Source of the DNA: Squalus acanthias
Lineage: Eukaryota
Direction: 5' to 3'
Length of the DNA: 64,000 nt
Assembly (NCBI GenBank): GCA_030390025.1
Contig: CM059431.1
Location: 136,030,001-136,094,000, forward strand
Of this stretch, positions 27,137 to 42,729 are shown one piece after another (position 1 is the first letter of the stretch; each line of letters begins with the position of its first letter). Under the pieces are notes generated by a model, which made no database searches, was not told the origin of the DNA, and was given only the letters and a program-made list of their open reading frames with translations. Both the position numbers and the translations under genes were made by a program.

Positions 27137-27654
27137 GTAAAACCCAGTTTGCTTTATCCACTGTGTGTGTCTTGCTCCATTCACAGTGACCCGAGTGTAT
27201 TTTACTGTATATTCAATATGTGTATGCTAGTTATAAAGTTTGGGTTGGCTGTAGATATTCTCGGCAGTGTTGGTCACTCCTGTAAGTGGTCTGAGCATCT
27301 TGCGTTCAGGAGTCTGCCCATACCACCCAATATTGAAGCAGCGATGGTGTAACGCAAGCATAATGTTAGGACCCCTTGTGATCAGAAGTGGATGGCGTGA
27401 CTCGCGTCTTTCAGTAGGTGGATTGAAAACACTTTAGTGAGATGAAGCCAGATATGAATCATTTAACTGCTTTATTTAAAAAAAATGAAAGGAGGAACTT
27501 GGATTTCTGTAGCGCTTTTCACAACCTAAGGCTGTCTCAAAGCTCTTTACAGTCAATTAAATATTTTTGCAGTGTAGTCACTGTTTTATATTAAAGTGAA
27601 CATACAAAATAATGGTTATGATGAAATATTTCTAACTTCATTTAACTTCAAACA

Positions 27655-28112
27655 CCAACACCCCCCCCACCCACTCCCCCCCCCCCACCCCACTCCCCCA
27701 CCCCACTCCCCCCCCCCCCACTCCCCCACCCCACTCCCCCCCTCCCCCCCCCACCCCACTCCTCCCCACTCCCCCCCCCACTCCCCCCCACTCCCCCCCC
27801 TCCCCCCCTCTCTCCCCCCCCACTCCCCCCTCCCCCCCCTCCCCCCCCTCCCCCCCCACTCCCCCCCCACTCCCCCCCCCACCCCACTCCCCCCCCCCAC
27901 CCCACTCCCCACCCCCCCCCCCCCCACCCCCCCACCCCCCCCCCACCCCCCCACCCCCCCAACCCCCCCCCACCCCCCCCCCCCCACCCCCCACCCCCCA
28001 CCCCCCCCACCCCCCCCACTCCCCCCCCACCCCACTCCCCACCCCCCCCCACCCCCCACCCCCCCCCCACCCCCCCCACCCCCCCCCACCCCCCCCCCAC
28101 CCCCCACCCCCC
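27655..28112. repeat. Poly-C-rich low-complexity tract (G-rich on the minus strand)
   Basis: Runs of C interrupted by a/t/act. Confidence 0.95.
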
Positions 28113-28538
28113 ACTGCCATTCATGAAGAAAAATAATAGTCCACACTGCCGTGCCCTGGGTTAGTGGGCTGACTAATGCTTCCTTTGGTCAGTCTGGCAT
28201 CGAAACAGACCAATACTTGGATGTCACTAGTCGCTCTCGGTTGTGCCTAGATCTTTCCTGCCTTTTCCTTGGTGCACCATTGTCATTGACTTTGCATGTT
28301 TTCCTTTTCTTTTTGTTATTCCTGAGTTTGGATTGTCCCTCGGACTTCTTCCCCATTTAGTGATTCACCAGTCAGTCTGTCAATAAAAGATGGAAAATGC
28401 TGGAAACACTGCAGGTCAGGCAGCATCTGTGGAGAGAGAAACAGAGTTAACAGGCTGGATTTTGTCAATGGGGAGCTTTTGGAGGCGGGACTCCCACTTG
28501 TCGGGTTTTAGTCCCGCCTCCATCGACTTGTGGCCAAC

Positions 28539-30186
28539 TGTAGAATTCGCAATTTATCGCGATTTTATTAATAAGGAGAAAACACAGAGTCTCGTTCAAA
28601 CAGCTTTTATTTCAGCAGAATGCGGTCAGGTTTTCTCAAAGTGGACACAAGCAGCCTGTAAAGTGCCCGCCGCACCTCGTGACAGAACATTCTAGACTTT
28701 TCGACAGGCAGACAAGATGGCGTTCCAATAAACATTTGTGCAAGATCGATTAAGATTCAGCACAGTGAAGATAATACACGAGACATTATGGGTTTGCAGT
28801 ATACACATAAATACTGAAATCGGTCTCCCAGGTACGAATGAAAGCTATTGTACCGAGTAATCAAGGGCCCATCCAAAAGACATTAATATGTAAAATCCCA
28901 ACGACTCTACGATGAGAGAGCCGTTAGCAGGTAGTTATACAAAACACTTGGAAGCCCCAAGACCCCTCCAGGGAGAACACCGACCGATTTAACAATGGGA
29001 GAAATATTAACAGGTACTCAGACAGTTACGAGTAGCCCCGAAACCCATTAAGAACGGAGATCACCCATACAAGACATTTGAGCGCCAAACCCAAACAAAA
29101 GAAAGGACATTAAGGTTGGGCGGGAAACGGAAGATTTTGTACTATAATTACAAGCTCCAACCGTCCATCGCTCTCTTATTCTCTTATCCGATCGACTCGT
29201 AACCTCGTGGCTGCTCCTGTGTTTTGACTCGTAGTCTGGTTCCTGCTTGCCTGGTGCCTCTTTGAAAAAGACTGTTGAACTTTCTGATCCGTTCGGATCT
29301 ACCTCGTGTCGCGTAACGAAGACCTATGTTGGTAACTGGCAGCGGAACCAAAGGCCCGAGATGAGATGAGATGAGATGAGATGAGATGAGAAGAGAGGAA
29401 GACCATACTCATCGCCACGGTCAGTAAATCCCGACCGCGCCTGTAGGTCGAATAGCCAAGTTTTCCTTGCCAGGAAGACTTCTTTGAACTTGCAAGAACG
29501 GATCATCACCGATGATATTGACTGGTCTGTGAAACCTGTTCGGAAAGTACCTGTTAAACCAACCAACACAGATCTTCATCACAGCAGACGGCCCAGCCTG
29601 CTAGCCGGAGCAGAAGCAAGTAAACAAGTGGGACCAGGAGATCTCCTGACCGACACGTGGGTGCTGCGGTGAAAAACATCCGATCAGCTATTCGGAATTT
29701 CTCCGAGTTATCACGAGTGGTGAGCATGAGTCTCGAAATCCTACGAATCTAGTTAGGACAGATATTGATAGGGGAGGGTTTAAGTATTAAGGATACTTGT
29801 AATGTGTGCCCCTATTTACGGTGTGTCGTTCGTTCCTCGTTTCCCTAAGATCAGCTATATAACTGCTTGTAAGATTGTACTGTCGTTAATCTGTGCTTAT
29901 GACATGTATTTCGTAATCTTAAGTATCATGCAATAAAGATTTTCCATTTCGTACCATTCAACCGAGTCTACATGAGTTTCATCTCCATTACTGCTCTCGC
30001 ATCTAAGTCCAGTGTCTAGAACCGTAAGGGCGAGTGATTCGAACCACTCACAGGTGTGTCTAGTGCTCCCAGACTGGCTGGAGACCAGAACAGGCAACAA
30101 GGCCTAAACCCGCACTGACATACAGGCTGCACAGAGCCGCGTGAATCTCACAGGCTGCGAGACACGCAGGGTCAGAATCCCTTACA
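28539..30186 (+). repeat. 5' LTR (1648 bp)
   Basis: tgtagaattc...cccttaca, a direct repeat of 39612-41258. Confidence 0.97.
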
Positions 30187-30190
30187 GAAA

Positions 30191-31999
30191 ATGGCGACCG
30201 CGGCAGGACACTGGCAGCGAGAGGGTAGTGTGTTAGACTTTGGAATGACTGTACGAAATGTTATGCAGGAAAAGATAGCAGATTATGTGTTCGGAAAGGT
30301 TAATCTAACCAAGAAATGGATAAGTGAATTGTTAGCGGATAAAAGCCCGCTAGAGGCAGCCGAAAGGTGGACAGATAGTAAAGAACATAAAAAGACACTC
30401 GAGAAAGCAGTCTGGCTTATGTGTTACAAAAGGCAGGTTCAGATTTCAAACCAGACCATTACAGCGCTAGTAGCTCGAATCAGTCATTTAGAGGGAGAAA
30501 TGGATGAGAAGGTTTCTGGAGGGGAAATGCTCATTAGGAATTTAAGTGCGTTGCACCAAGAACGCCAGGAAATCTCCAGTCACCATAAAACAAGGATAGA
30601 TTACCTCGAGTGCCAGGTCACTGAGGCAAAGTTAAATGAGAGCAGGTTAAAGGAAAGATGTGCCCGCCAAGCTGCCCAGATAAGAACTCAGGAAGAGAGC
30701 TTAACGGGGGTTAGGGCGGCATATAAGTTGGCCCTTGAGGATAAGTTTCAGGGAGCCGATCATAGCGCCTGCCAAAAAGAGATAGAGCACCTCAAAAAGG
30801 CCGTGAACAAAGCGCACGGCATGGTGTGCCTTATCAGTCCGTCAGCACACCAGCCGCTAGTAAGTGAGAAGTTTAAGAAATCCCCACCAAGTAAAGCAGA
30901 GGAAGTAGTAGCCACTGCGCCCTCCGCGCCACCCAGCTACTCGGAAACCTGGGTTAGGGAGGAAGCAATGGAAGAAACGAAAGAGCCCATTGAGAAAGAA
31001 GTGGAAAAGGGACCGTTGTATCCAGTAACGGGTATTAAAAGGGGCCCAAACAGAAACGGTGGGGAAGAACCAGGGGATCTCCTCGGACAGCTTGTGTTGC
31101 CTCACAGCTCACACCAGCTGAGAGCTATGATAAATCACGTACGGAAGCTGACCGAGTCAGACGACCCTTCCGTACATTTCAGAGAAGTTGAGCAAGCCGC
31201 AGCCATTAACGGCTGCGATGATGGGGAAACAGCAAAAATGCTGCTGTTCTCATTAGACAGCTCGGTCCTTCAGTGTCTCTCAGGCGAGAGCAAGAGGGGA
31301 ACCAAGACTTATGAGGCATTAAAGAATGAGGTCCTGGAAGTGTTGGGGGCGAACGATGAAGGTCCGTTTGCTAGAGTGGGACAGACAGTGCAGATGGAGG
31401 GAGAACCCCCGAAGGTTTTTGCCGACAGGCTGTGGCCAGTATATGAGCGCAGCTGTCTAGGTGCGGCCGAGCGCGAAGATGTGGAAGGCGCCGGTTTAGC
31501 TCATTGGCTTAGGTGCATAATAGCCAACAGTTTACCAGCCGTCAGAGAGCAGGCAAAAGCATGGTTTGATCCCAATGACCCCAACATTACGGAAGAGTCG
31601 GTCTTGAATCGACTCACGTTAGGATATCGCAATATAAGGGGTATGGCAACACGTCCCCTTAAGGGAAAAGTACATGAGGTACGACCCGCAGCCCCGTATC
31701 AAAGAGAGTGGCATCAGGAGGGTAATCGCGCCCCACAGGCAAGTAATGCTTGTTACGGGTGTGGGAAGACAGGGCACTGGCGCAAGCATTGCAGGAACCC
31801 TTGGAAAGATTCCAAGGATAAAAATCCCGCGGTCCGAGCCCAGGCGCCTGTCCCGGCTAGGGAAGCTAATGCACCCACCCCTCCCGACGACCTCGAAGTA
31901 GTGTTAGGAGCCATGCGCAATCTATTGAGTGCACATGGAAAGGTGGCGGTCGCAACCGGCCCCGTAGGTGCCGCAGGACCGTCTAATAGTACCCCATGA
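30191..31999 (+). CDS. gag: Gag polyprotein (coiled-coil N-terminus, late domains, capsid, one CCHC knuckle)
   Basis: 602-aa ORF; PSAPPSY; CYGCGKTGHWRKHC. The true start could be 30191 or 30245. Confidence 0.92.
   Translation: MATAAGHWQREGSVLDFGMTVRNVMQEKIADYVFGKVNLTKKWISELLADKSPLEAAERWTDSKEHKKTLEKAVWLMCYKRQVQISNQTITALVARISHLEGEMDEKVSGGEMLIRNLSALHQERQEISSHHKTRIDYLECQVTEAKLNESRLKERCARQAAQIRTQEESLTGVRAAYKLALEDKFQGADHSACQKEIEHLKKAVNKAHGMVCLISPSAHQPLVSEKFKKSPPSKAEEVVATAPSAPPSYSETWVREEAMEETKEPIEKEVEKGPLYPVTGIKRGPNRNGGEEPGDLLGQLVLPHSSHQLRAMINHVRKLTESDDPSVHFREVEQAAAINGCDDGETAKMLLFSLDSSVLQCLSGESKRGTKTYEALKNEVLEVLGANDEGPFARVGQTVQMEGEPPKVFADRLWPVYERSCLGAAEREDVEGAGLAHWLRCIIANSLPAVREQAKAWFDPNDPNITEESVLNRLTLGYRNIRGMATRPLKGKVHEVRPAAPYQREWHQEGNRAPQASNACYGCGKTGHWRKHCRNPWKDSKDKNPAVRAQAPVPAREANAPTPPDDLEVVLGAMRNLLSAHGKVAVATGPVGAAGPSNSTP
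30192..30209 (+). promoter_or_regulatory. Primer-binding site, tRNA-Arg(TCG)-like
   Basis: TGGCGACCGCGGCAGGAC is the complement of the vertebrate tRNA-Arg(TCG) 3' end ...GTCCTGCCGCGGTCGCCA, as recalled from the human sequence. Confidence 0.8.
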
Positions 32000-34900
32000 C
32001 TAGAACCCGCGCAGCCCGTCTACCTGTGTCCGCTTAGCTATGATGCGTGGAAGCGACCTTTGGTGGAGATGGAGGTAGAGAAACAGAGGGGTAGTTATTT
32101 GTTGGACACGGGAGCTTCTTGCACCATAATCCATACAGATAGCCCTTTTGACTCGCCGCTATCTACCAGGGTCCCATTCACGTTAGCGGGGTTCACAGGA
32201 AAAGAACAGGCTGGCGCGTTCTCCCTTCCGCTATCCATTCGTTTGGGAGCACTTCACCTTAAGTGGAAGTGTATACTGATGGAATGGCAGGAGGGGGGTG
32301 GAAGAGGTATTCTCGGGTCTGATCTTCTATCGGGACACGGGATCCTCGTGGACCTCAGAAATCACTGTCTCTGGGGGGCTAAGGGTGAAAAAGGCGAGGT
32401 AGTAGTGATTCCGGGGGAGGAAGAAACAGGGGTCCTGTGTACCGTACAGCCATCCGGAGGCTACGACCTCAGGCTTATGGTCGCAGATGTCCCAACGGAC
32501 ATGCAAACGTACGTGTCAGATAATATGCACGCGTTTGCAACCCACAAGCACGATTGTGGGAGGGTTATCGGGTTTGAGGTCAGCGTAGATGGGGACCCCA
32601 TGACCCGACCCCAAAAGCAGTATAACTTCCCCAAAGAAGCAGAACCCGATATGGAAACAGCAATGTCCTCTTTGGTGCAGCAGGGCGTGTTGAGGCCGAT
32701 AGCCACACACGTGAACTCCCCATTATGGCCGGTTAGGAAGCCGGATAATTCGTGGAGAGCCACGGTGGACTACAGAGTCCTTAACAGTAACATTCCCGCC
32801 TGCGCGCCCACGGTAGCAGCAGTTGCTGACCTGATAGGGAGCATCCCAGCGTCCGCGACCACGTTCACGGTGCTGGATATCTCGAACGGTTTTTGGTCCA
32901 TCCCGCTGAGGCGAGAGGACCAGTACAAGTTTGCCTTTACTTTCAAAGGACAACAGTACACATGGAACTGTCTGCCACAGGGTTTCCACAATAGCCCCAG
33001 TATTTTCCATCAGTGTATGGCAGGAAGTTTAAAGGAGTTTAGTCAGCCCAATCAGATAGTGCAGTACGTGGATGATTTGCTCCTATTTACGGACTCAAGG
33101 GAGGAGCATGGACCACTACTGGACGAGTTATTGGAGCTGCTAGCGAGAAAGGGTTTTAAAATAAATCCTAAGAAAGCACGTATCGGTCAGCGGGAAGTAA
33201 AATTCCTGGGACTGACCATACGCGCTGGGGAAAGAGCCATAGACAAAGCAAGGAGGGAGTCGGTGCAAGAATTACCGATTCCCAACAACATAAGGGGTGT
33301 GAGGTCCTTCTTGGGACTGACCGGTTACTGCAGGGACTTTATCGAAGACTATGCGGCCACAGCAGCGCCGCTCCTCCGACTCCTCCATAAGGGGGTGGAG
33401 TGGTCTTGGGACGAGGGCTGCCAAGCAGCCTTCGAGAAGTTAAAAAGGGATCTGCAGACCGCGCCAGCCTTAGGGGCCATAGATGGGGGTAAGGAGTTTT
33501 TCCTGGAGGTAGCTGCCAGCGGAGACAGCTTGAGCGCTGTGCTGCTCCAAGAGCGTCACGGCAAGCTGAGGCCGGTTGTCTATTCATCCAGGGTGTTAAC
33601 GGATGTGGAGAGAAGTTTCTCCAATTGCGAAAGGCACCTTTTAGCCACGCATTGGGCTGTGAAAAGATCAGCGATCTTCACAGGGCTCTCTCCCATCACT
33701 CTCCTCACACATCACACACCAACTAAGATGCTTCTGGATGGGAGGATTAAAGATGGGACCGTAAGCAGCGCGCGCATTGCGCGTTGGACCCTTCTTCTCT
33801 CCCAGTTGGATCTTAGAGTAAAAGGTCTTTGCGAGCCCAGGCTTGCGGCCAATTTGGTATACCCCGGTACAGCCCACCGGTGTTCGGTGGAAGGGGTGTG
33901 GGACGTCAACATAGGTTTACGGGCCGGGATACATCCCACTGGGCGCGAGATTTATGTTGATGGGTCTAGCACAGTATCTGCTGGCGAACGACTCACGGGG
34001 TGTGGAGTTTATGACCCTGCGGCAGACCTTGCCCTGGCGATCAAGCTCCCTAGCACCATGAGCGCGCAGCAGGCTGAGCTGTCTGCCGTGGTGTACGTTG
34101 TTACCCACCCAGACATTTTCCCAACCCCATACACGATTTGCTCGGACAGTATGTTCACCTGCAATTCGTGTACGGAATACCTGGCCATTTGGTCCCGCCG
34201 TGGATACACCTCCGCGGACGGGCGACCTTTAACGGTGAAGCCCTTGCTGGAAAAGATCTTAGCAGCAGCAGTAGGGGAGGAAGGAGAGATTTTCATCCAT
34301 AAGGTGAAAGCTCACTCCTCCACAGAGCCCCGTGGGGAGGGCAACCAGCAGGCGGATGCGCTAGCCAGGGAAGGTGCCCGCAACGGCATTTTCTGGGACC
34401 CCTATGGGACCAGACCCATAGCAGCGATCCGAGGCAGGGACGGGAATCCCGGGAACACCAGGGTAGCATTGCCCCTAGACCTTAAGACCGTCCAAACCCA
34501 GGATCCCGCCCTAAAAGCAGTCCTAAAAACCATTGCTGAGGGGAGGCAGGTAGAAGGTCCGTACAGTACGGCAACCCTCTCAGTTAAGGAAGGCATGCTG
34601 TTCCGCGAGGAGCAGTGGGTTGTGCCGCAGCAGCACAGGAGGGAATTCCTCCAGTTGGCTCACGAGGGACCAGGGGCAGGGCACCCCGGGCCCGAGGTTA
34701 CCTGGCAACGGGTAGAGCAAGCGGGATGGTGGCCAGGGCTCAGGGAACAAGTCCGCGAGTTCTGTGCAAACTGTCTTGTGTGCGCTGCAAACAACCCAGA
34801 CCCCCAGAAAAGGAAGGTGCCCATGGGACACGTAAGAAGGGTAGAGGGACCATGGCAGTCGATACAGATCGACTATATAGGACCCCTGCCCACCACCCAG

Positions 34901-36520
34901 GGAGGTTATAAATACTGCCTCGTCTTGGTGGATGTGTTTTCCAAGTGGGTGGAAGCCTTCCCCTGTCGAACAGCTACGGCACTGGGTACAGCAAAAATCT
35001 TGGTCCGGGAAGTGTTCTCGCGGTGGGGACTTCCCCGTTTTGTGGAGTCAGACCAAGGGAGTCATTTCACCGGCCAGGTGATGCAGAACACCCTCATGCT
35101 TTTGGGCATTGAAGGGAAGTGGCACGTAGCACACAATCCCCAGTCATCCGGGATTGTTGAACGCATGAACCGGACCCTGAAGGAGAAATTGAGGAAAGAG
35201 ACTAGGAACTCGCCCCAAAAATGGGCGGAAGTTCTGCCTTTAGTCCTCATGGGGGTCCGGGCCAGTCAGTCAAAAAGTACGGGGTACTCCCCGCACGAGG
35301 TGATGACTGGGAGGCTCATGCGAACCCCCACCCATGTGCTAGCGCCGGTGCTCACTGAGGGTCAGCTCCAAGAGATAAGCAGGGACAAGTTCGCCCAGAC
35401 TCTCTTGGAGCGCCTGAAGCAGGTTTATGAGCAGGCGGCTGGGAACATGGGAAGGCAGCATCAGGGCAATCGCTTGTTGCTGGAACCCCGCAAAACGCGG
35501 GAGTGGGAAGTAGGAGACCAGGTCATGGTCAGAAACTACGCCAGAGTAGGGAGTCTGGAACCACTGTATATGGGACCCTACAACATTGTAGACAAGGCGA
35601 GTCCCATGGTATACGCCGTAAAAGTACCTCGGCGCACTAAGTGGTTCCACGTAAACCAATGCAAACTGTACAAGCCAGGTGCGCAAGGGAAAACCACAGG
35701 GGTAAACCCCGCCAGTGGGGAAGCACAGCCCCAGGTAGGACCACAAGGCACACAGGCAGGCAAAGCAGCTTGCATCAGGGGAGGGGACATCCTGGAAGAT
35801 CATGAAGCATTTTTGTGGGGTTGGGAGTCAGATGAGGGAGAATTCCGGGAACTCGAGTCAGATGAGGATAGTGATGAAGACGAGTGGTTTTTGGGGAACG
35901 GTCCCATTTTAGGTATAGGGAGGATACGGGCTGCAGATAGAGATCCACACAGGGTGGACACACAAGCTGCAGGTCCCGAAGACAGGAGGGAGGAGCTAGG
36001 GGAGGCGGGGCCAGCCGCTGTGGGAGCACAGGGAGTGACGGTGAGGACCCCAGAGACAGAGCCGCCCGCTTTGAACGTCCCGTCCTCGGGGGAGGCAGAG
36101 ATCACGAGTGAAGGGCCGCCTGCTGGGCCGAGCAGGGCGGAGCCACAAACTGCGAGCCCCGAGGTTAGGGAGGCGGAGTCAGCGGAGGCGGAGCCAGCGA
36201 CTGTGGTGGAACCCCAGGTCGTCCCGATGGAAGTCTCGGAACCCGGTCCGTCAGTCACGGAACCCCCGCCCATGGCAACTCCCCGTAGGTCAAGTAGAGA
36301 ACCCCAGCCCAGGAGGATGTGGTCATGTCCCCAGACTGCCCCAAGGCGTAGACTTAAGGTTAAGGCAACCCAGATACAGCCCGGCCCCATCGCAGCAGCA
36401 ACAGGCTGCGGCAGATCAGAGGAAGGAATCAGTGCAGCAACAGGCTGCGGCAGATCAAAGGGAAGGGTCAGTGCCCTCCCACCGTCGGGAAGAGCTCGCA
36501 GCAGCCTTCTCAGAATTTAA
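32000..36520 (+). CDS. pol: Pol: PR-RT-tether(degenerate RNase H)-RNase H-integrase plus C-terminal extension
   Basis: The frame is open from directly after the gag stop. LLDTGAS; LPQGF..YVDD; LEVAAS (degenerate RH); YVDGS..AQQAEL..SDS..GNQQAD (second RH); HHCC, IDY..SDQG..VER; GPY. Confidence 0.95.
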   Translation, partial: LEPAQPVYLCPLSYDAWKRPLVEMEVEKQRGSYLLDTGASCTIIHTDSPFDSPLSTRVPFTLAGFTGKEQAGAFSLPLSIRLGALHLKWKCILMEWQEGGGRGILGSDLLSGHGILVDLRNHCLWGAKGEKGEVVVIPGEEETGVLCTVQPSGGYDLRLMVADVPTDMQTYVSDNMHAFATHKHDCGRVIGFEVSVDGDPMTRPQKQYNFPKEAEPDMETAMSSLVQQGVLRPIATHVNSPLWPVRKPDNSWRATVDYRVLNSNIPACAPTVAAVADLIGSIPASATTFTVLDISNGFWSIPLRREDQYKFAFTFKGQQYTWNCLPQGFHNSPSIFHQCMAGSLKEFSQPNQIVQYVDDLLLFTDSREEHGPLLDELLELLARKGFKINPKKARIGQREVKFLGLTIRAGERAIDKARRESVQELPIPNNIRGVRSFLGLTGYCRDFIEDYAATAAPLLRLLHKGVEWSWDEGCQAAFEKLKRDLQTAPALGAIDGGKEFFLEVAASGDSLSAVLLQERHGKLRPVVYSSRVLTDVERSFSNCERHLLATHWAVKRSAIFTGLSPITLLTHHTPTKMLLDGRIKDGTVSSARIARWTLLLSQLDLRVKGLCEPRLAANLVYPGTAHRCSVEGVWDVNIGLRAGIHPTGREIYVDGSSTVSAGERLTGCGVYDPAADLALAIKLPSTMSAQQAELSAVVYVVTHPDIFPTPYTICSDSMFTCNSCTEYLAIWSRRGYTSADGRPLTVKPLLEKILAAAVGEEGEIFIHKVKAHSSTEPRGEGNQQADALAREGARNGIFWDPYGTRPIAAIRGRDGNPGNTRVALPLDLKTVQTQDPALKAVLKTIAEGRQVEGPYSTATLSVKEGMLFREEQWVVPQQHRREFLQLAHEGPGAGHPGPEVTWQRVEQAGWWPGLREQVREFCANCLVCAANNPDPQKRKVPMGHVRRVEGPWQSIQIDYIGPLPTTQGGYKYCLVLVDVFSKWVEAFPCRTATALGTAKILVREVFSRWGLPRFVESDQGSHFTGQVMQNTLMLLGIEGKWHVAHNPQSSGIVERMNRTLKEKLRKETRNSPQKWAEVLPLVLMGVRASQSKSTGYSPHEVMTGRLMRTPTHVLAPVLTEGQLQEISRDKFAQTLLERLKQVYEQAAGNMGRQHQGNRLLLEPRKTREWEVGDQVMVRNYARVGSLEPLYMGPYNIVDKASPMVYAVKVPRRTKWFHVNQCKLYKPGAQGKTTGVNPASGEAQPQVGPQGTQAGKAACIRGGDILEDHEAFLWGWESDEGEFRELESDEDSDEDEWFLGNGPILGIGRIRAADRDPHRVDTQAAGPEDRREELGEAGPAAVGAQGVTVRTPETEPPALNVPSSGEAEITSEGPPAGPSRAEPQTASPEVREAESAEAEPATVVEPQVVPMEVSEPGPSVTEPPPMATPRRSSREPQPRRMWSCPQTAPRRRLKVKATQIQPGPIAAATGCGRSEEGISAATGCGRSKGRVSALPPSGRARSSLLRI

Positions 36521-36806
36521 AGGGGCCGCCCTGAGAACGGGCGGCACTGTATAGTAATAAGTTTTAAGTTTTAAGTTCATAGTTCAAGGTTAAGTTTATA
36601 GTTTTAATAAGGTTAAGATTGTAGTGTTTTTAACAGAAAACGATAAAATGATGGGAGCTTTAAAAATAGGTTTAGTTAAAGTTTATTCAGCGAACGTTGA
36701 AGTTTACGTGAGGCGAGGTCAGGGGACCCGCTCACCCTTCACAAAAGCCAGAGACTCTTGCGAGGCTGGCTACCTCATTCTATCTGATCACAGGAACCAA
36801 GGAAGG

Positions 36807-39158
36807 ATGGAACGAATTCTAGTATTGCTCGCGGCAATCGGATGTGGATTGGCCTATCGAGGCCGCACCAAGGATGTCGTGGTGTTTGGATGTTCCGGGG
36901 ACACGGCCCCCATCGCGGTGGATGGGACCGGAAGACGGGAGGCAGAGGAGACCAGCACCTATTTCCACAAGGGAAGGTGGCCAGGATGGCTGGGAACGAA
37001 CTCAACGGAGTATTCTAGCACATCGGGGTTTGCCTACAAAGAGACTTCTTTAATGTGCCCCAAAGTAAGGATCATCGCACCCAGGATCAGCGTCACCGTC
37101 GGCAAACGGATTTGTTTGACTTGTAGTGGGAATGTCCCATTGAGCCGATGGTGGTGGCTGCGAAAGCTGAGCAAAACTATGAGGAACTCTTCGGTCGAGT
37201 GGGAACGACTGGGTAATAATACCCATCGGACAATTACGGGGACAAACGGACAAGTGAAAGTCTGTTGGGACAAATGGTGGGAACCGGACGAGGGAATTTA
37301 TGTATGCATGTGGGGGTCAAAATACCCTTGCCCCAAAGGCATATCCATATTTTTCATTAATCAGTGGCAGGATAACGGACAGGGGATGAGGTGGGATGCG
37401 AGCACCAGGGGGTGCGGAGCCCCATACTCTTCGATCCCGGTAAATGCCACTGAGCTCATTACGCGCCCACGCAAAGCCCCGCCCACGATTCCGGTGGTTC
37501 TAGCTGAGGAAGAAGGGTGCCCTAAAACTAGTAAGGGACCCGGGAATGGTTTGGTACTGGTCCCCACAGACCAGATACTATTTCAGGGGGTACATTACGC
37601 GGTGGCCTCGGTGATTTTAAATCTCACCGAGGTGCGGTTACCAGAGTGGTGCCCCAAAAAGACGGAACAGTTGTATCAGGTCCTGTTGACCAAGATGTTC
37701 AGACAATTTTACGAATTCGATTTCGCGGAAATTGATAAAACAAGTTTGTACACCGCACCACAGGAAGTTTTGGATCAAGTAGGGAGGCAAAGAAGGGGTT
37801 TGGTGAACGATGCGTTCACTGCTTTTAACACGGGTACATCTGTGGTCAACGCTCTAGACAGTGTGGAGCTGCAGACCCAGATTAATGGTCTAAAAACGCA
37901 ATTAAAAGACATTCTAACAGATGAGAATAAAGTGGTAGGGTCGGGTCTACACGAGGACCAAGCCATGACTCTCCATTTAAAGGAAATTATAGCAGAGCTG
38001 GAGAAACATGCAAAGACGGTAAATGCCCTGATTAGGGAAGATCGGAATGCATCCGATCAAGCTGCGCAGAACGAGGTGTGCGTGCTTTACGGGGCGTGGT
38101 TACTGGGCGAGGGCCGCAGTAATTTGGAGGATTTAAAACAAGGTTTGGTCCCGTCCTGGATAAGTAACAAACACCTGCGGGCGCTCCACCCTTTTCAGAA
38201 CGCATTAAGTCCGTGTCAGCTCAGGCTAGCTTCAGAAGCATACCCAGTCCCCGTGGACTGCGGACGATCAAACCATACCATTATGGGTATAGTTTTACGC
38301 ATGCCGGTTTTGGGCGACACAGCAAAGCCCGCCCCGGTGTATCGGGTAGAGAACATTGGTGTCATTCAGGGGGGAGCCCACATTCGTTATGCAGCGGTTC
38401 CACCTTACGTCATCCGCTGGGAGCAAACGATGACAGGTACAGATCTCTCTGGTTGTCGTGGCAGGGGAGCACACATAATACTGTGCCCCCAGCACTTGAA
38501 TGCCTTTTTAACACCACAGTGCGGGTTCAGAACGATTGGCGCCAAGTCCATGAATTGTACCATGGAGGCAATGGCACAAGATCATGTGCCTCCGCAGGTA
38601 GCATACATCGGGGGTGGAACATATTGTGTTACCACTGCAGCGCAACACTACCAGCATGGAAACCGTAGCCGGTGTCCGGTGAGTGACAGCAGTTTCTGTT
38701 TTAAACCCAGGGCGGAAGTTCAAGTAGCACAACAGCGAATTATCCCAATCCCTGAACCATCCACTGTTCATCTCACAGTAAAAGAGAATTTCACCGACTT
38801 GCAACGATTCGTCGCGCATTTCGGATACCTCATTCCCCCTCTCCCTGAACACCTCACCAAGCTTTTAAAAGCCGTCGCGGTGTCACAGAAACATTTTTAC
38901 ACATTAGAACAGAAAACTGTCGAAATAGGAACAGACATTCTGGATATAGTAGTTCCACCGTGGTGGAATCTGTTCACCAATATTGAAGTGCCTTCATGGA
39001 TCAGAATAGCCTCCCACATTTTAGTCGTATGTCAAGTGTTTATTGTAGTGTACCTATTGGTCGTACATTGTAAAAGAGACAAACGCCTCACCAAGCATGA
39101 AAACACGGGAGAGTGGCGAGAACGTTACGTGCGCGTGCACGATGAAAGCACCGTGTAA
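36807..39158 (+). CDS. env: Envelope glycoprotein: signal peptide, Ig-like domain, class I fusion protein of paramyxo/pneumovirus F type, TM anchor
   Basis: ORF open from 36624; likely start MERILVLLAAIGCGLA at 36807, after a candidate splice acceptor (…gatcacag, 36793). RQRR|GLVNDAFTAFNTG cleavage site and fusion peptide, heptad repeat, Cys-rich region, TM IASHILVVCQVFIVVYLLVV. Confidence 0.88.
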   Translation: MERILVLLAAIGCGLAYRGRTKDVVVFGCSGDTAPIAVDGTGRREAEETSTYFHKGRWPGWLGTNSTEYSSTSGFAYKETSLMCPKVRIIAPRISVTVGKRICLTCSGNVPLSRWWWLRKLSKTMRNSSVEWERLGNNTHRTITGTNGQVKVCWDKWWEPDEGIYVCMWGSKYPCPKGISIFFINQWQDNGQGMRWDASTRGCGAPYSSIPVNATELITRPRKAPPTIPVVLAEEEGCPKTSKGPGNGLVLVPTDQILFQGVHYAVASVILNLTEVRLPEWCPKKTEQLYQVLLTKMFRQFYEFDFAEIDKTSLYTAPQEVLDQVGRQRRGLVNDAFTAFNTGTSVVNALDSVELQTQINGLKTQLKDILTDENKVVGSGLHEDQAMTLHLKEIIAELEKHAKTVNALIREDRNASDQAAQNEVCVLYGAWLLGEGRSNLEDLKQGLVPSWISNKHLRALHPFQNALSPCQLRLASEAYPVPVDCGRSNHTIMGIVLRMPVLGDTAKPAPVYRVENIGVIQGGAHIRYAAVPPYVIRWEQTMTGTDLSGCRGRGAHIILCPQHLNAFLTPQCGFRTIGAKSMNCTMEAMAQDHVPPQVAYIGGGTYCVTTAAQHYQHGNRSRCPVSDSSFCFKPRAEVQVAQQRIIPIPEPSTVHLTVKENFTDLQRFVAHFGYLIPPLPEHLTKLLKAVAVSQKHFYTLEQKTVEIGTDILDIVVPPWWNLFTNIEVPSWIRIASHILVVCQVFIVVYLLVVHCKRDKRLTKHENTGEWRERYVRVHDESTV

Positions 39159-39599
39159 TCGGAAAATGGCGTCATTCCCGCTCGCCACGTGCGCCGCGGA
39201 AGTTTGTACTCGATCATGATTTTCAAAGATTGTAAATACGTTTGGGAACTCGACATGTGTTAAGAGTTGGTGTTGATTATTTTTGGTGATGGTGTTGTAG
39301 TTAAAAATGATTGTTTGGTTTTGGGTTTTGTTTTTCCTTTCCCTGAATAAAAGATGAATATACAGGTGATACGAGAGGCATCGGCCTGGTTACGCCGGGA
39401 AGGAAAACAAGTGGTGTAAGTTTAAGGGCAAATAAAGGCCCACGGTGATATAAAATGTAATTTTCTTGGGAAATAAGGACGACACAGAGACCCTAGCTAG
39501 GTTAAAATTATGGGATTAATTTGCTGGATTCGGAGAGAAATCGAGATAATATTGCTCACCACTATGATTTTTGATACGATAAGCGGAGTTATTCGCATC

Positions 39600-39611
39600 A
39601 ACAGGAGGGAC
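39600..39611 (+). promoter_or_regulatory. Polypurine tract
   Basis: aacaggagggac immediately before the 3' LTR TG. Confidence 0.75.
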
Positions 39612-41258
39612 TGTAGAATTCGCAATTTATCGCGATTTTATTAATAAGGAGAAAACACAGAGTCACACAGTTCAAACAGCTTTTATTTCAGCAGAATGCG
39701 GTCAGGTTTTCTCAAAGTGGACACAAGCAGCCTGTAAAGTGCCCGCCGCACCTCGTGACAGAACATTCTAGACTTTTCGACAGGCAGACAAGATGGCGTT
39801 CCAATAAACATTTGTGCAAGATCGATTAAGATTCAGCACAGTGAAGATAATACACGAGACATTATGGGTTTGCAGTATACACATAAATACTGAAATCGGT
39901 CTCCCAGGTACGAATGAAAGCTATTGTACCGAGTAATCAAGGGCCCATCCAAAAGACATTAATATGTAAAATCCCAACGACTCTACGATGAGAGAGCCGT
40001 TAGCAGGTAGTTATACAAAACACTTGGAAGCCCCAAGACCCCTCCAGGGAGAACACCGACCGATTTAACAATGGGAGAAATATTAACAGGTACTCAGACA
40101 GTTACGAGTAGCCCCGAAACCCATTAAGAACGGAGATCACCCATACAAGACATTTGAGCGCCAAACCCAAACAAAAGAAAGGACATTAAGGTTGGGCGGG
40201 AAACGGAAGATTTTGTACTATAATTACAAGCTCCAACCGTCCATCGCTCTCTTATTCTCTTATCCGATCGACTCGTAACCTCGTGGCTGCTCCTGTGTTT
40301 TGACTCGTAGTCTGGTTCCTGCTTGCCTGGTGCCTCTTTGAAAAAGACTGTTGAACTTTCTGATCCGTTCGGATCTACCTCGTGTCGCGTAACGAAGACC
40401 TATGTTGGTAACTGGCAGCGGAACCAAAGGCCCGAGATGAGATGAGATGAGATGAGATGAGAAGAGAGGAAGACCATACTCATCGCCACGGTCAGTAAAT
40501 CCCGACCGCGCCTGTAGGTCGAATAGCCAAGTTTTCCTTGCCAGGAAGACTTCTTTGAACTTGCAAGAACGGATCATCACCGATGATATTGACTGGTCTG
40601 TGAAACCTGTTCGGAAAAGTACCTGTTAAACCAACCAACACAGATCTTCATCACAGCAGACGGCCCAGCCTGCTAGCCGGAGCAGAAGCAAGTAAACAAG
40701 TGGGACCAGGAGATCTCCTGACCGACACGTGGGTGCTGCGGTGAAAAACATCCGATCAGCTATTCGGAATTTCTCCGAGTTATCACGAGTGGTGAGCATG
40801 AGTCTCGAAATCCTACGAATCTAGTTAGGACAGATATTGATAGGGGAGGGTTTAAGTATTAAGGATACTTGTAATGTGTGCCCCTATTTACGGTGTGTCG
40901 TTCGTTCCTCGTTTCCCTAAGATCAGCTATATAACTGCTTGTAAGATTGTACTGTCGTTAATCTGTGCTTATGACATGTATTTCGTAATCTTAAGTATCA
41001 TGCAATAAAGATTTTCCATTTCGTACCATTCAACCGAGTCTACATGAGTTTCATCTCCATTACTGCTCTCGCATCTAAGTCCAGTGTCTAGAACCGTAAG
41101 GGCGAGTGATTCGAACCACTCACAGGTGTGTCTAGTGCTCCCAGACTGGCTGGAGACCAGAACAGGCAACAAGGCCTAAACCCGCACTGACATACAGGCT
41201 GCACAGAGCCGCGTGAATCTCACAGGCTGCGAGACACGCAGAGTCAGAATCCCTTACA
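39612..41258 (+). repeat. 3' LTR (1647 bp)
   Basis: Copy of the 5' LTR; four differences seen by eye. Confidence 0.97.
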
Positions 41259-42729
41259 CCAACCCACGCTATTTTCCCTTGATTGACCTTGTTAAGCCCG
41301 CCCAGCGGGCCAAGCAGGCCAATTAAGGGAAAGCCGGTTACAAGTGACGTCAGCGAGTGACGTTTCATCTGTCAAGAGCTTTTGACAGATGAATTGTCAT
41401 TGTTTGATGGCTCTGTGAAGCTGTCAATCAGGCTGAGTTAGAGAGCCCTCCTGAGCAGAAAGCAAAAGGCTGCAGCTTTTGACAGTTCAGTGGCCATTCT
41501 GCTTTCTGTGCCGGTGAGCTGAGGGACTCCGAGACCTGAAGGGAGGAAGCCTGCAGGAAGAAGTAAAGGTAAGTAAAACTTATTAAAACATTTTAAACAC
41601 ACCTCACACACTTACCTCTTCACACGTGCACCCATCACTCACCTGCACACCGGACATCTCGGCCCCTCCGACCCCCGCAGACCCACGGCTCGCCTCGCTG
41701 ACCATGGCGAGGTTTGGAGCCGTCGGGAAGCCCACACTTCAGGGCTGAAAATAGGTATTAGCCAAAAAAAAACCTGTTAAAATTGGCACTAATCCCCTTC
41801 CCGCCTCAGGGAGGCGGCTCCCAGCGCGGGTCGGGTACCCGCCTCCTGGGAAGATGGCACGGAGGCGGGTTGGGGCGGGATGGGTACCCGCCCCCAGATT
41901 CTGCCATTTTCCCGGCAGTCCCGCCTCCCCAGGGCTGGCAAAATTTCCCCCAACGTTTCAGGTCGATGACCTTTCGGCTGCACTGAAAGATGCTGGAGAT
42001 GAACAGCTTTTAAGCAAATGCAGAGCAGGGGAAAAGCTGCGACGTGTTTCTCCTCTTCCCCATCAGATTCCCGGAGACACCCCATCCTGGACTCAAATTA
42101 ATCTATCAGAAAATAGATGTGGATGTTTCTTGGCAGTCTGAAACAAGATAAACAGCACATTGTCAATACCTGGTTGATTAACAACTCTTTCCTCGGTGGC
42201 TGCTGGATACGACTGAAATCCAACGTGAACCCATGTAAATTTAAACACCACTTAATGTAACTCACTCCCAAATCCTTTCAGTGGAAGAATAGTCAAAAAT
42301 CCTAAGATGTGATGGTGTTGCTATTCTGTTCAGTGTGTCTATATTTCTCTTGTCAGAATATGTGTTACATCCCCTCTCTCCCGCCCCCGCCTCTCCACTC
42401 ATCACATAGCTGGGAATATTTGAACTGATGAACTAATTAGTGACATGAGGTATATCATCGGGTTCACATGTTAATAGTTGCATTGGTATTATAGCTCCCT
42501 TTGTAACATTATCGTAAAATGCCTGTTGATGGGATTTGAAGCAATATTTGATTGTGGGGCTTCAGTGACTTCATTACAGGTTATTTAATTAGGTTCTAAC
42601 AATGTTCAAAGTCTGGTGCAGTAATTGTCGGAATTAATTCTCTGTGAATTGTGATTTTGTTATGTTTGTATTTGTGTGATCTTTCCTGTCACTGGTGCTT
42701 TCCTCCAATATTGTTTGCTCGTGTTTCAG

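Follow-up and report, generated by a model that had tools for sequence, protein, structure and literature searches.

Does the envelope protein (Env) of an endogenous retrovirus (ERV) of Squalus acanthias join an immunoglobulin (Ig)-like domain to a fusogen of the paramyxovirus type? The question is raised by the env gene of a complete provirus, which occupies positions 28539-41258 of the plus strand, in the order LTR-gag-pol-env-LTR (LTR, long terminal repeat), within a window of 64,000 nt, that is, the whole stretch of contig CM059431.1 that was analyzed. An earlier note on this DNA had described the 783-residue product as an Ig-like domain fused in front of a fusogen like the F protein of paramyxo- and pneumoviruses. 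We moderately favor the explanation that this is a lokiretrovirus-like Env in which an F-type fusogen carries a probable Ig-like N-terminal head. The motifs that the note had listed (the Ig signature, WWW, RQRR, the Pro-rich hinge, GLVLV...VILNL...C, DLSGC...ILC and the anchor) were all recovered at their places in the translation and by regular-expression scan, and the coordinates of the features are collected in Table 1.

The F-type body of Env

An AlphaFold2 model of the full-length protein was built on an alignment of 39 sequences (A1). Its mean predicted local distance difference test (pLDDT) score was 62, with values of 80-95 over residues ~235-310 and ~420-650. In a Foldseek comparison of this model with the PDB, 241 of the 500 best matches reached E <= 0.001, and the top rows were F proteins of paramyxo- and pneumoviruses, namely human parainfluenza virus 3 (hPIV3), respiratory syncytial virus (RSV), Langya virus, parainfluenza virus 5, Nipah virus, and Newcastle disease virus; the best match was hPIV3 F (1ZTM; E 1.2e-10, probability 1.00). 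Model residues 243-245 were aligned by VIA with F residues 23-38, the start of mature F2, in 48 of the 50 rows listed. Because the VIA alignment starts where mature F2 starts, the F-like body is complete, and residues ~17-244 are without a counterpart in F. The ~225 residues in front of the F2 start bear out the earlier claim of an extra module preceding F.

The model is post-fusion-like in shape, with a long helix at residues 332-444, and its best matches are post-fusion F structures, with sequence identities of 6-16% in the structural alignments. Both hallmarks of F were found: the fold, comprising the head and the helices of heptad repeats A and B (HRA and HRB), and a multibasic site before the fusion peptide. 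This RQRR site, located by regular-expression scan and predicted to be cleaved, directly precedes the fusion peptide GLVNDAFTAFNTGTSVVNAL. As modeled, Env residues 245 to ~715 share the fold of paramyxo- and pneumovirus F and form a class I fusogen. A conventional retroviral transmembrane subunit (TM) was considered as the alternative and rejected, the fold being that of F and the CX6CC motif being absent. The motif was not found anywhere in the 783 residues by regular-expression scan, as had been claimed, and the assignment of the C-terminal ~540 residues to an F-type class I fusogen rather than a retroviral TM is upheld by this absence and by the Foldseek and VIA comparisons of the model.

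The match to Fusion_gly that had been expected for the C-terminal part was recovered as a fold by Foldseek but not as a sequence family. PF00523 (Fusion_gly) remained unmatched in Pfam at E <= 1 for this Env and 12 homologues, which weighs against the F assignment, and F rows were absent when profile A1 was searched against PDB sequences. The sole retroviral PDB row for this profile was a weak match in the stalk/TM region to a HERV-K chain (E 0.034). In Pfam, one Env homologue had a weak Baculo_F match (E 0.0011), and a single weak DUF6360 row fell at Env residues 328-407.

An F-like fusogen is already known for lokiretroviruses. The kinship of their Env with paramyxo- and pneumovirus F was published in 2020 (Wang & Han, Mol Biol Evol; PMC7947760), and later papers repeat the F-likeness, among them bioRxiv 10.1101/2023.10.26.564294; what follows refers to the available portions of these texts. 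Lokiretroviruses (PMC7947760) and the Squalus provirus have in common the order LTR-gag-pol-env-LTR, a Pol with a tether and a true RNase H, and an Env with a signal peptide, an R-x-[KR]-R site, a fusion peptide, a coiled coil, and a transmembrane anchor that is related to paramyxo- and pneumovirus F and not to canonical retroviral TM. In contrast, the published Env model lists just the signal peptide, the fusion peptide, a coiled coil, a transmembrane segment, and the cleavage site, and lokiretroviral Env matched PF00523 at E 2.2e-7, whereas the Squalus Env gave no PF00523 match. Judged by layout, dual RNase H, and F-type Env, the provirus appears lokiretrovirus-like. Env homologues are present in frogs and the coelacanth, both known lokiretrovirus host groups.

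Compared to paramyxo- and pneumovirus F (hPIV3 1ZTM, Nipah 8DMJ, RSV 3RKI), the Squalus Env shares the whole fold from the F2 start to the stalk, a furin site ahead of the fusion peptide, the pair of heptad repeats, and a transmembrane anchor. It differs by its ~225 extra N-terminal residues, with the probable Ig-like domain, and by the place of its gene, which follows pol and precedes the 3' LTR in a provirus that lacks a separate attachment gene. The F-type Env of errantiviruses (Ty3/gypsy), taken together with baculovirus F, is likewise an F-like fusogen serving as the sole envelope gene of a reverse-transcribing element, but of another retroelement lineage and in invertebrate hosts; the words "immunoglobulin" and "Ig-like" occur 0 times in the available text of bioRxiv 10.1101/2023.10.26.564294.

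The nature of the N-terminal extension

The extension is common to annotated proteins of skate and sawshark and to a metagenome record, at 50-75% identity, and the closest named relatives of Env come from skate and sharks. A second, older ERV family in the Squalus acanthias genome (family B; 150 matches scored out of 5830 first-look candidates, many with stops) has an extension that is ~50% identical. Multiple lineages of virus with an F-type Env have thus colonized the same genome (loci L031-L040). Conserved blocks in the alignments include GCSG, GRWPGWLGxNSTxYSS, CLxC, WWWLRKLS, and VCWDKWW..GIYxC. A word-index search for short relatives of the N-terminal domain returned 2 proteins only. Among the annotated proteins, P0003, P0004, and P0040, gene models of other species, join Env fragments to host genes (Niban 1-like, C2H2 zinc-finger, and F-box protein); these fusions are probably annotation chimeras, and their env pieces are possibly exonized ERV pieces.

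Within the extension, CLTC occupies residues 103-106 (nt 37113), WWW residues 115-117, and DEGIYVC residues 161-167 (nt 37287), 61 residues past C106. The Cys, Trp, and D-x-G-x-Y-x-C elements stand at Ig spacing and are kept among relatives: the triad C106/W115-117/DEGIYVC is found in close relatives (alignment A3) and in family B, one copy of which (L039) has lost the F-strand Cys. In 300,000 composition-preserving shuffles of Env, D.G.Y.C alone arose 562 times, D.G.Y.C preceded at Ig-like spacing by a C and, 7-16 residues after that C, a W 92 times, and the same triad with [LIV]xC 18 times; the pattern was defined after the sequence had been seen, and the counts serve as a guide only.

We regard the core of the extension (residues ~85-190) as probably an Ig V/I-type beta-sandwich. 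Only Ig families and Ig V domains recur over the extension, in the same register and each below threshold. Ig_3 was the only Pfam family to match the stretch of residues 85-190 in the window protein, at E 0.072 when the N-terminus was searched by itself and 0.46 with either the whole protein or the 116-residue core. It was also found in three of the eight members of alignment A2 (best E 0.0085) and in four of five family-B copies (E 0.018-0.044), always spanning profile positions 2-6 to 74 of 78; the sole other Pfam match in family B was one weaker Zn_ribbon_11 row in one copy. With phmmer, 10 of the 12 PDB rows were Ig V-type (antibody light chains and JAM; best E 0.38), aligned from B-strand Cys to F-strand Cys, VGxRxxLTC to DxxxYxC. 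The A2 profile search of the PDB was swamped by zinc fingers from the chimeric gene model P0004, and A2 was replaced by the clean alignment A3, for which the CRTAM IgV domain supplied the top two among 4 PDB rows (E 0.12 and 0.22). Overall, the V-domain, JAM, and CRTAM matches were in register at E 0.12-1.5, none of them significant. The AlphaFold2 model of the N-terminus alone has strands at the expected positions of B, C, D, E, F, and G, and both this and the full-length model set strands at the B, D, E, F, and G places.

The survey of other F-type Envs that had been proposed gave a divided result. Distant full-length homologues, whose sources include the sharks Mustelus and Chiloscyllium and the frogs Pelodytes and Mantella, align with the window Env only from residue ~221-235 on, and a partial coelacanth homologue (P0047, 482 residues) from ~233; the N-termini of the distant homologues themselves are 140-180 residues long. 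For the frog homologue P0019, all 50 of 50 PDB rows were antibody heavy chains (best E 0.0049); the alignments run from the C' region past the F-strand Cys and through a J-like WGxG motif, which immediately precedes the conserved CP...GL sequence that opens the F2 core. For the shark homologue P0013, which is named "Ig-like domain-containing protein" in UniRef, 6 of 9 PDB rows were antibody heavy-chain variable domains (E 0.054-0.85), and P0035 matched V-set in Pfam (E 0.045). P0019 and P0013 are thus V-like, but P0048 and profile A4 found no Ig in the PDB. From these sequences, the N-terminal module looks fast-evolving and Ig V-like in at least three lineages, with homology between the lineages not proven.

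A number of observations weigh against an Ig fold, and most of them would suit a different account, in which the extension is a Cys-rich, beta-rich surface subunit (SU) domain of another or a new fold and the Ig pattern and matches reflect coincidence or convergence. Every Ig match is sub-threshold: Ig_3 reached 11.5-17 bits, versus a gathering cut-off of 30. No Ig match was obtained in Pfam for P0002 and L039, nor, within the 25 listed out of 34 families, for P0004. P0048, P0035, and profile A4 gave no Ig rows against the PDB, interleukin-2 ranked first among the PDB rows for P0013, and hhalign comparisons of A3 with P0013, P0012, P0019, and P0035 were not significant (E 0.11-0.39), the P0012 match falling in the wrong region. 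The AlphaFold2 model of the N-terminus alone, built on A2, had a mean pLDDT of 40.0 and a predicted template modeling score of 0.42, with no residue at 70 or above, and residues 1-234 of the full-length model were mostly below 50. For the N-terminal model, Foldseek returned 0 matches at E <= 0.001; a transpeptidase, which is not an Ig protein, ranked first (E 0.092), most of the rows after it were antibody light-chain variable domains (probability 0.6-0.75), and the VIA Z score was never above 3.8, which is not significant. Antibodies are abundant in the PDB, and weak Ig rows are expected by prior. In the ESM Atlas, neighbors of the extension included Ig clusters at 0.80-0.84, values often attained by shuffled proteins as well. 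The domain also has extra Cys residues (C103, C153, and C175) and an odd, Trp-rich composition (WWW, WDKWW), and an hhalign comparison of its core with host V exons aligned 16 columns only (E 0.063).

We nevertheless consider another fold unlikely. Apart from the single DUF6360 and Zn_ribbon_11 rows, only Ig models match the stretch, in two subfamilies that are ~50% identical, and they do so always in the same register. Frog and shark lineages match antibody V domains at the same architectural position, and the motif is rare in shuffles. Of the earlier reading, the Ig motif and its spacing therefore stand, while the Ig fold is probable, its sequence matches being sub-threshold and its structure prediction poor; the suggested AlphaFold and Foldseek check of the N-terminus yielded an all-beta model but not the expected structural matches.

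Proposed working, origin, and spread

The env product is a type I membrane glycoprotein with 23 Cys and 10 N-x-S/T sequons. Its architecture comprises, in order, a signal peptide, a conserved segment, the probable Ig-like domain, a Pro-rich linker, the F2-like core, RQRR, the fusion peptide and HRA, the F head, HRB, the transmembrane anchor, and a short tail. Furin cleavage would leave an SU-equivalent (extension plus F2-like core) bound to a TM-equivalent; the Ig-like domain may then bind a cell-surface receptor, upon which the F-like TM-equivalent would refold. A similar division is familiar from gammaretroviruses, in which SU has an N-terminal beta-sandwich receptor-binding module and a Pro-rich hinge and triggers a class I TM. 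The likeness to the Squalus Env is one of working logic, and gammaretroviral TM is of the canonical type with CX6CC, whereas the Squalus Env is without it. We give roughly even chances to the Ig-like domain being a receptor-binding trigger, with attachment and fusion in one precursor as in ordinary retroviral Env.

The domain might instead be Ig-like but serve to shield the F head or clamp it in its prefusion form, or to engage immune receptors of the host. Nothing direct favors such a role, which we hold to be quite unlikely, but the four sequons within residues 65-213 would fit a shielding surface, and the closest marginal matches (CRTAM, JAM, and butyrophilin-type) are immune or adhesion molecules, an argument of little weight at such scores. 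On the other side, the room between the LTRs is taken up by gag, pol, and env, which leaves no other attachment candidate, and the N-terminal domains of retroviral SU usually bind receptor. Between lineages, the N-terminal domain also evolves faster than the F part, being unalignable beyond the clade, compared to 20-32% identity for the F part, and a faster pace of this kind typifies modules that bind receptors.

Paramyxovirus F ordinarily depends on an attachment protein of its own kind apart from F, and in retroviral Env, fusion and attachment are as a rule combined in the same protein. Since the latter is so and an F-like lokiretroviral Env is known (PMC7947760, available portion), the single-chain attachment-plus-fusion system cannot be claimed as a novelty, as the earlier note had suggested. 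The head itself is another matter. "Immunoglobulin" is absent from the available main texts of PMC7947760, PMC9040795, PMC12440569, and PMC13709493, whose supplements may list more Env domains or cartilaginous-fish hosts; the main text of PMC7947760, in the same portion, is also without the terms N-terminal, receptor, surface, shark, skate, cartilaginous, and Chondrichthyes. Wider literature searches turned up no account of an F-type retroviral Env with an Ig-like domain. The N-terminal Ig-like domain is apparently undescribed, and it probably characterizes the whole family instead of being a chimera formed locally. If confirmed, an Ig-like head borne by the F-type fusogen itself would represent another way to couple receptor binding to the F fusion machine, and lokiretroviral Env would gain the SU/TM division of labor of ordinary retroviruses.

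The origin of the domain had been described as capture. That this element recently took it from a host Ig-superfamily gene is very improbable in our judgment. Retroviruses can transduce host sequence, and the Squalus acanthias genome is rich in V-set exons (2831 first-look candidates). However, the searches revealed no close donor: Ig matches in the PDB had E 0.12 at best, no host or PDB Ig was more than marginally similar, and the hhalign match of the N-terminal core to host V exons (30 loci fetched, less L056 with one stop and exact duplicates) was confined to the A'/B strand. Genome searches with the N-terminal domain were filled by ERV copies, such that a weak host donor could have been missed. 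The domain is shared, at the identities given above, by skate and sawshark ERVs and by the older family B of the same genome, and between families A and B it diverges in step with the F2 core (~52% versus ~61% identity). This in-step divergence and the lack of a close donor make recent capture by the element unlikely, and the notion of a freshly captured domain was accordingly abandoned. With fairly good confidence, we regard the Ig-like module as ancient in vertebrate F-type retroviral Env and as common to the family.

An ancient capture of the Ig domain is possible and, if true, would be an interesting case. We tentatively suggest, as a scenario with less than even chances, that a V-type Ig domain, acquired on a single occasion from an early vertebrate host, was placed before F2 as a receptor-binding head, and that the virus spread by infection until very recently in this host and may still circulate between related species. 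If common to shark, skate, and frog lineages, the Ig-like head would date when a virus and an Ig-superfamily gene of an early vertebrate exchanged sequence, and it would bear on where lokiretroviruses got their Env.

The provirus itself is young, its LTRs being near-identical (99.3% identity across 1654 columns, with 2 mismatches and 4 gap openings by blastn). At least 57 env copies that cover residues 1-783 at 99-100% identity were found, 54 of 57 without a stop; the 57 were scored out of 12,922 first-look candidates, ranked by protein score. This young, many-copy family is found in a cartilaginous fish, a host class that is not listed for lokiretroviruses in the available portions of the literature examined. 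Compared with the window env, 29 copies each carried 6-49 nucleotide differences. Codon changes in these copies amounted to 64 synonymous and 20 non-synonymous in the N-terminal domain (omega ~0.09) and 375 synonymous and 70 non-synonymous in the F part (omega ~0.055), values that are biased downward, to the detriment of a selection argument, by the choice of the 30 copies compared for top protein scores. Copies with 30-49 differences carry <=8 amino acid changes, unlike neutral decay, indicating that env, the N-terminal domain included, was under purifying selection during spread. Such selection fits infection rather than copying within cells.

Between 54 and 67% of the sampled env 31-mers (36600-39200) were present in 14 public runs from six studies with five coded organism labels. 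These shared words indicate near-identical sequence, which could mean that the family is common to closely related hosts or that it recently moved from one species to another. In the two small runs X1 and X4, whose RNA status was guessed for both, LTR word depth (29400-30081) was 10-50x the gag-pol depth, which fits many solo LTRs or LTR-driven transcripts. Env word depth in the same two runs exceeded that of pol, an excess that is not usable, the RNA status being guessed and the runs having been chosen with env. In X15, the sole genuine RNA run, 0 reads aligned, a count that carries no weight.

Structure of the provirus

Table 1. Features of the provirus and its env gene, in window positions
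Feature	Position	Strand	Basis
Target-site duplication CCAAC, 5' copy	28534..28538	+	read directly; same 5 bases follow the 3' LTR
5' LTR	28539..30186	+	TG...CA ends; blastn vs 3' LTR
gag ORF (open reading frame), 602 aa	30191..31999	+	ORF list
pol ORF, 1483 aa: protease, reverse transcriptase, tether-type RNase H, RNase H, integrase, acidic/Pro-rich tail	32069..36520	+	ORF list, Pfam
In-frame open stretch, 53 codons, with an earlier ATG upstream of the signal-peptide Met	36648..36806	+	ORF list; putative leader
env ORF, 783 aa plus stop	36807..39158	+	ORF list, translation
Putative signal peptide, ~residues 1-16, hydrophobic MERILVLLAAIGCGLA	36807..36854	+	read in translation
Conserved N-terminal segment, residues 18-84, GCSG and GRWPGWLGxNSTxYSS motifs	36858..37058	+	invariant columns of alignment A3; pLDDT <50
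Probable domain of Ig V/I type, residues 85-190, with CLTC (strand B), WWW (strand C), and DEGIYVC (strand F)	37059..37376	+	sub-threshold Pfam/PDB matches
Linker with Pro-rich hinge, residues 191-244	37377..37538	+	translation; precedes first F-aligned residue
F2-like core, residues 245-326	37539..37784	+	structural alignment to F; pLDDT 85-95
Predicted furin-type site RQRR, residues 327-330	37785..37796	+	motif scan; R-x-[KR]-R aligned in homologues
Fusion peptide plus HRA helix, residues 331-444	37797..38138	+	AlphaFold2 helices 332-376, 383-444
F head domains with Cys-rich DLSGC...ILC region, residues 445-651	38139..38759	+	pLDDT 80-95; F-aligned up to ~651
HRB helix, residues 679-713	38841..38945	+	AlphaFold2 helix; some rows align to post-fusion F stalks
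Transmembrane anchor, residues 734-755	39006..39071	+	Kyte-Doolittle maximum 2.55 at residue 734
Cytoplasmic tail, residues 756-783	39072..39155	+	translation
Purine-rich tract just ahead of the 3' LTR, AACAGGAGGGA	39600..39610	+	read directly
3' LTR	39612..41258	+	blastn vs 5' LTR; ends TG...CA read directly
Target-site duplication CCAAC, 3' copy	41259..41263	+	read directly

On the plus strand between the LTRs, the ORF list contains no frame of >=100 residues besides gag, pol, and env. Gag matched zf-CCHC weakly in Pfam (E 0.29). Pol matched RVT_1 (5e-36), RT_RNaseH_2 (2e-21), RNase_H (1.2e-19), Integrase_H2C2 (1.7e-17), and rve (5.9e-15), so that a tether-type region is accompanied by a true RNase H. 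The env frame is open for 789-861 residues in all 57 scored copies, versus 783 in the window env; the in-frame stretch upstream of the signal-peptide Met might encode a leader peptide or be untranslated. No splice joints were seen in the contigs.

The gag ATG (30191) lies just 4 bases past the 5' LTR, without an untranslated leader in between, and because of this proximity a candidate tRNA primer-binding site (TGG-starting, from 30192) overlaps the first gag codons. The tail of Pol extends ~270 residues beyond the SH3-like region of integrase (35700-36520, residues ~1210-1483) and is acidic, Pro/Ser-rich, and without a Pfam match; it is overlapped by long minus-strand ORFs at 35339-35803 and 35800-36390. 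Spurious Gly/Trp-rich ORFs on the minus strand arise from a degenerate, G-rich tandem repeat (27608-28129; period of 8-15 bases) that lies just upstream of the provirus.

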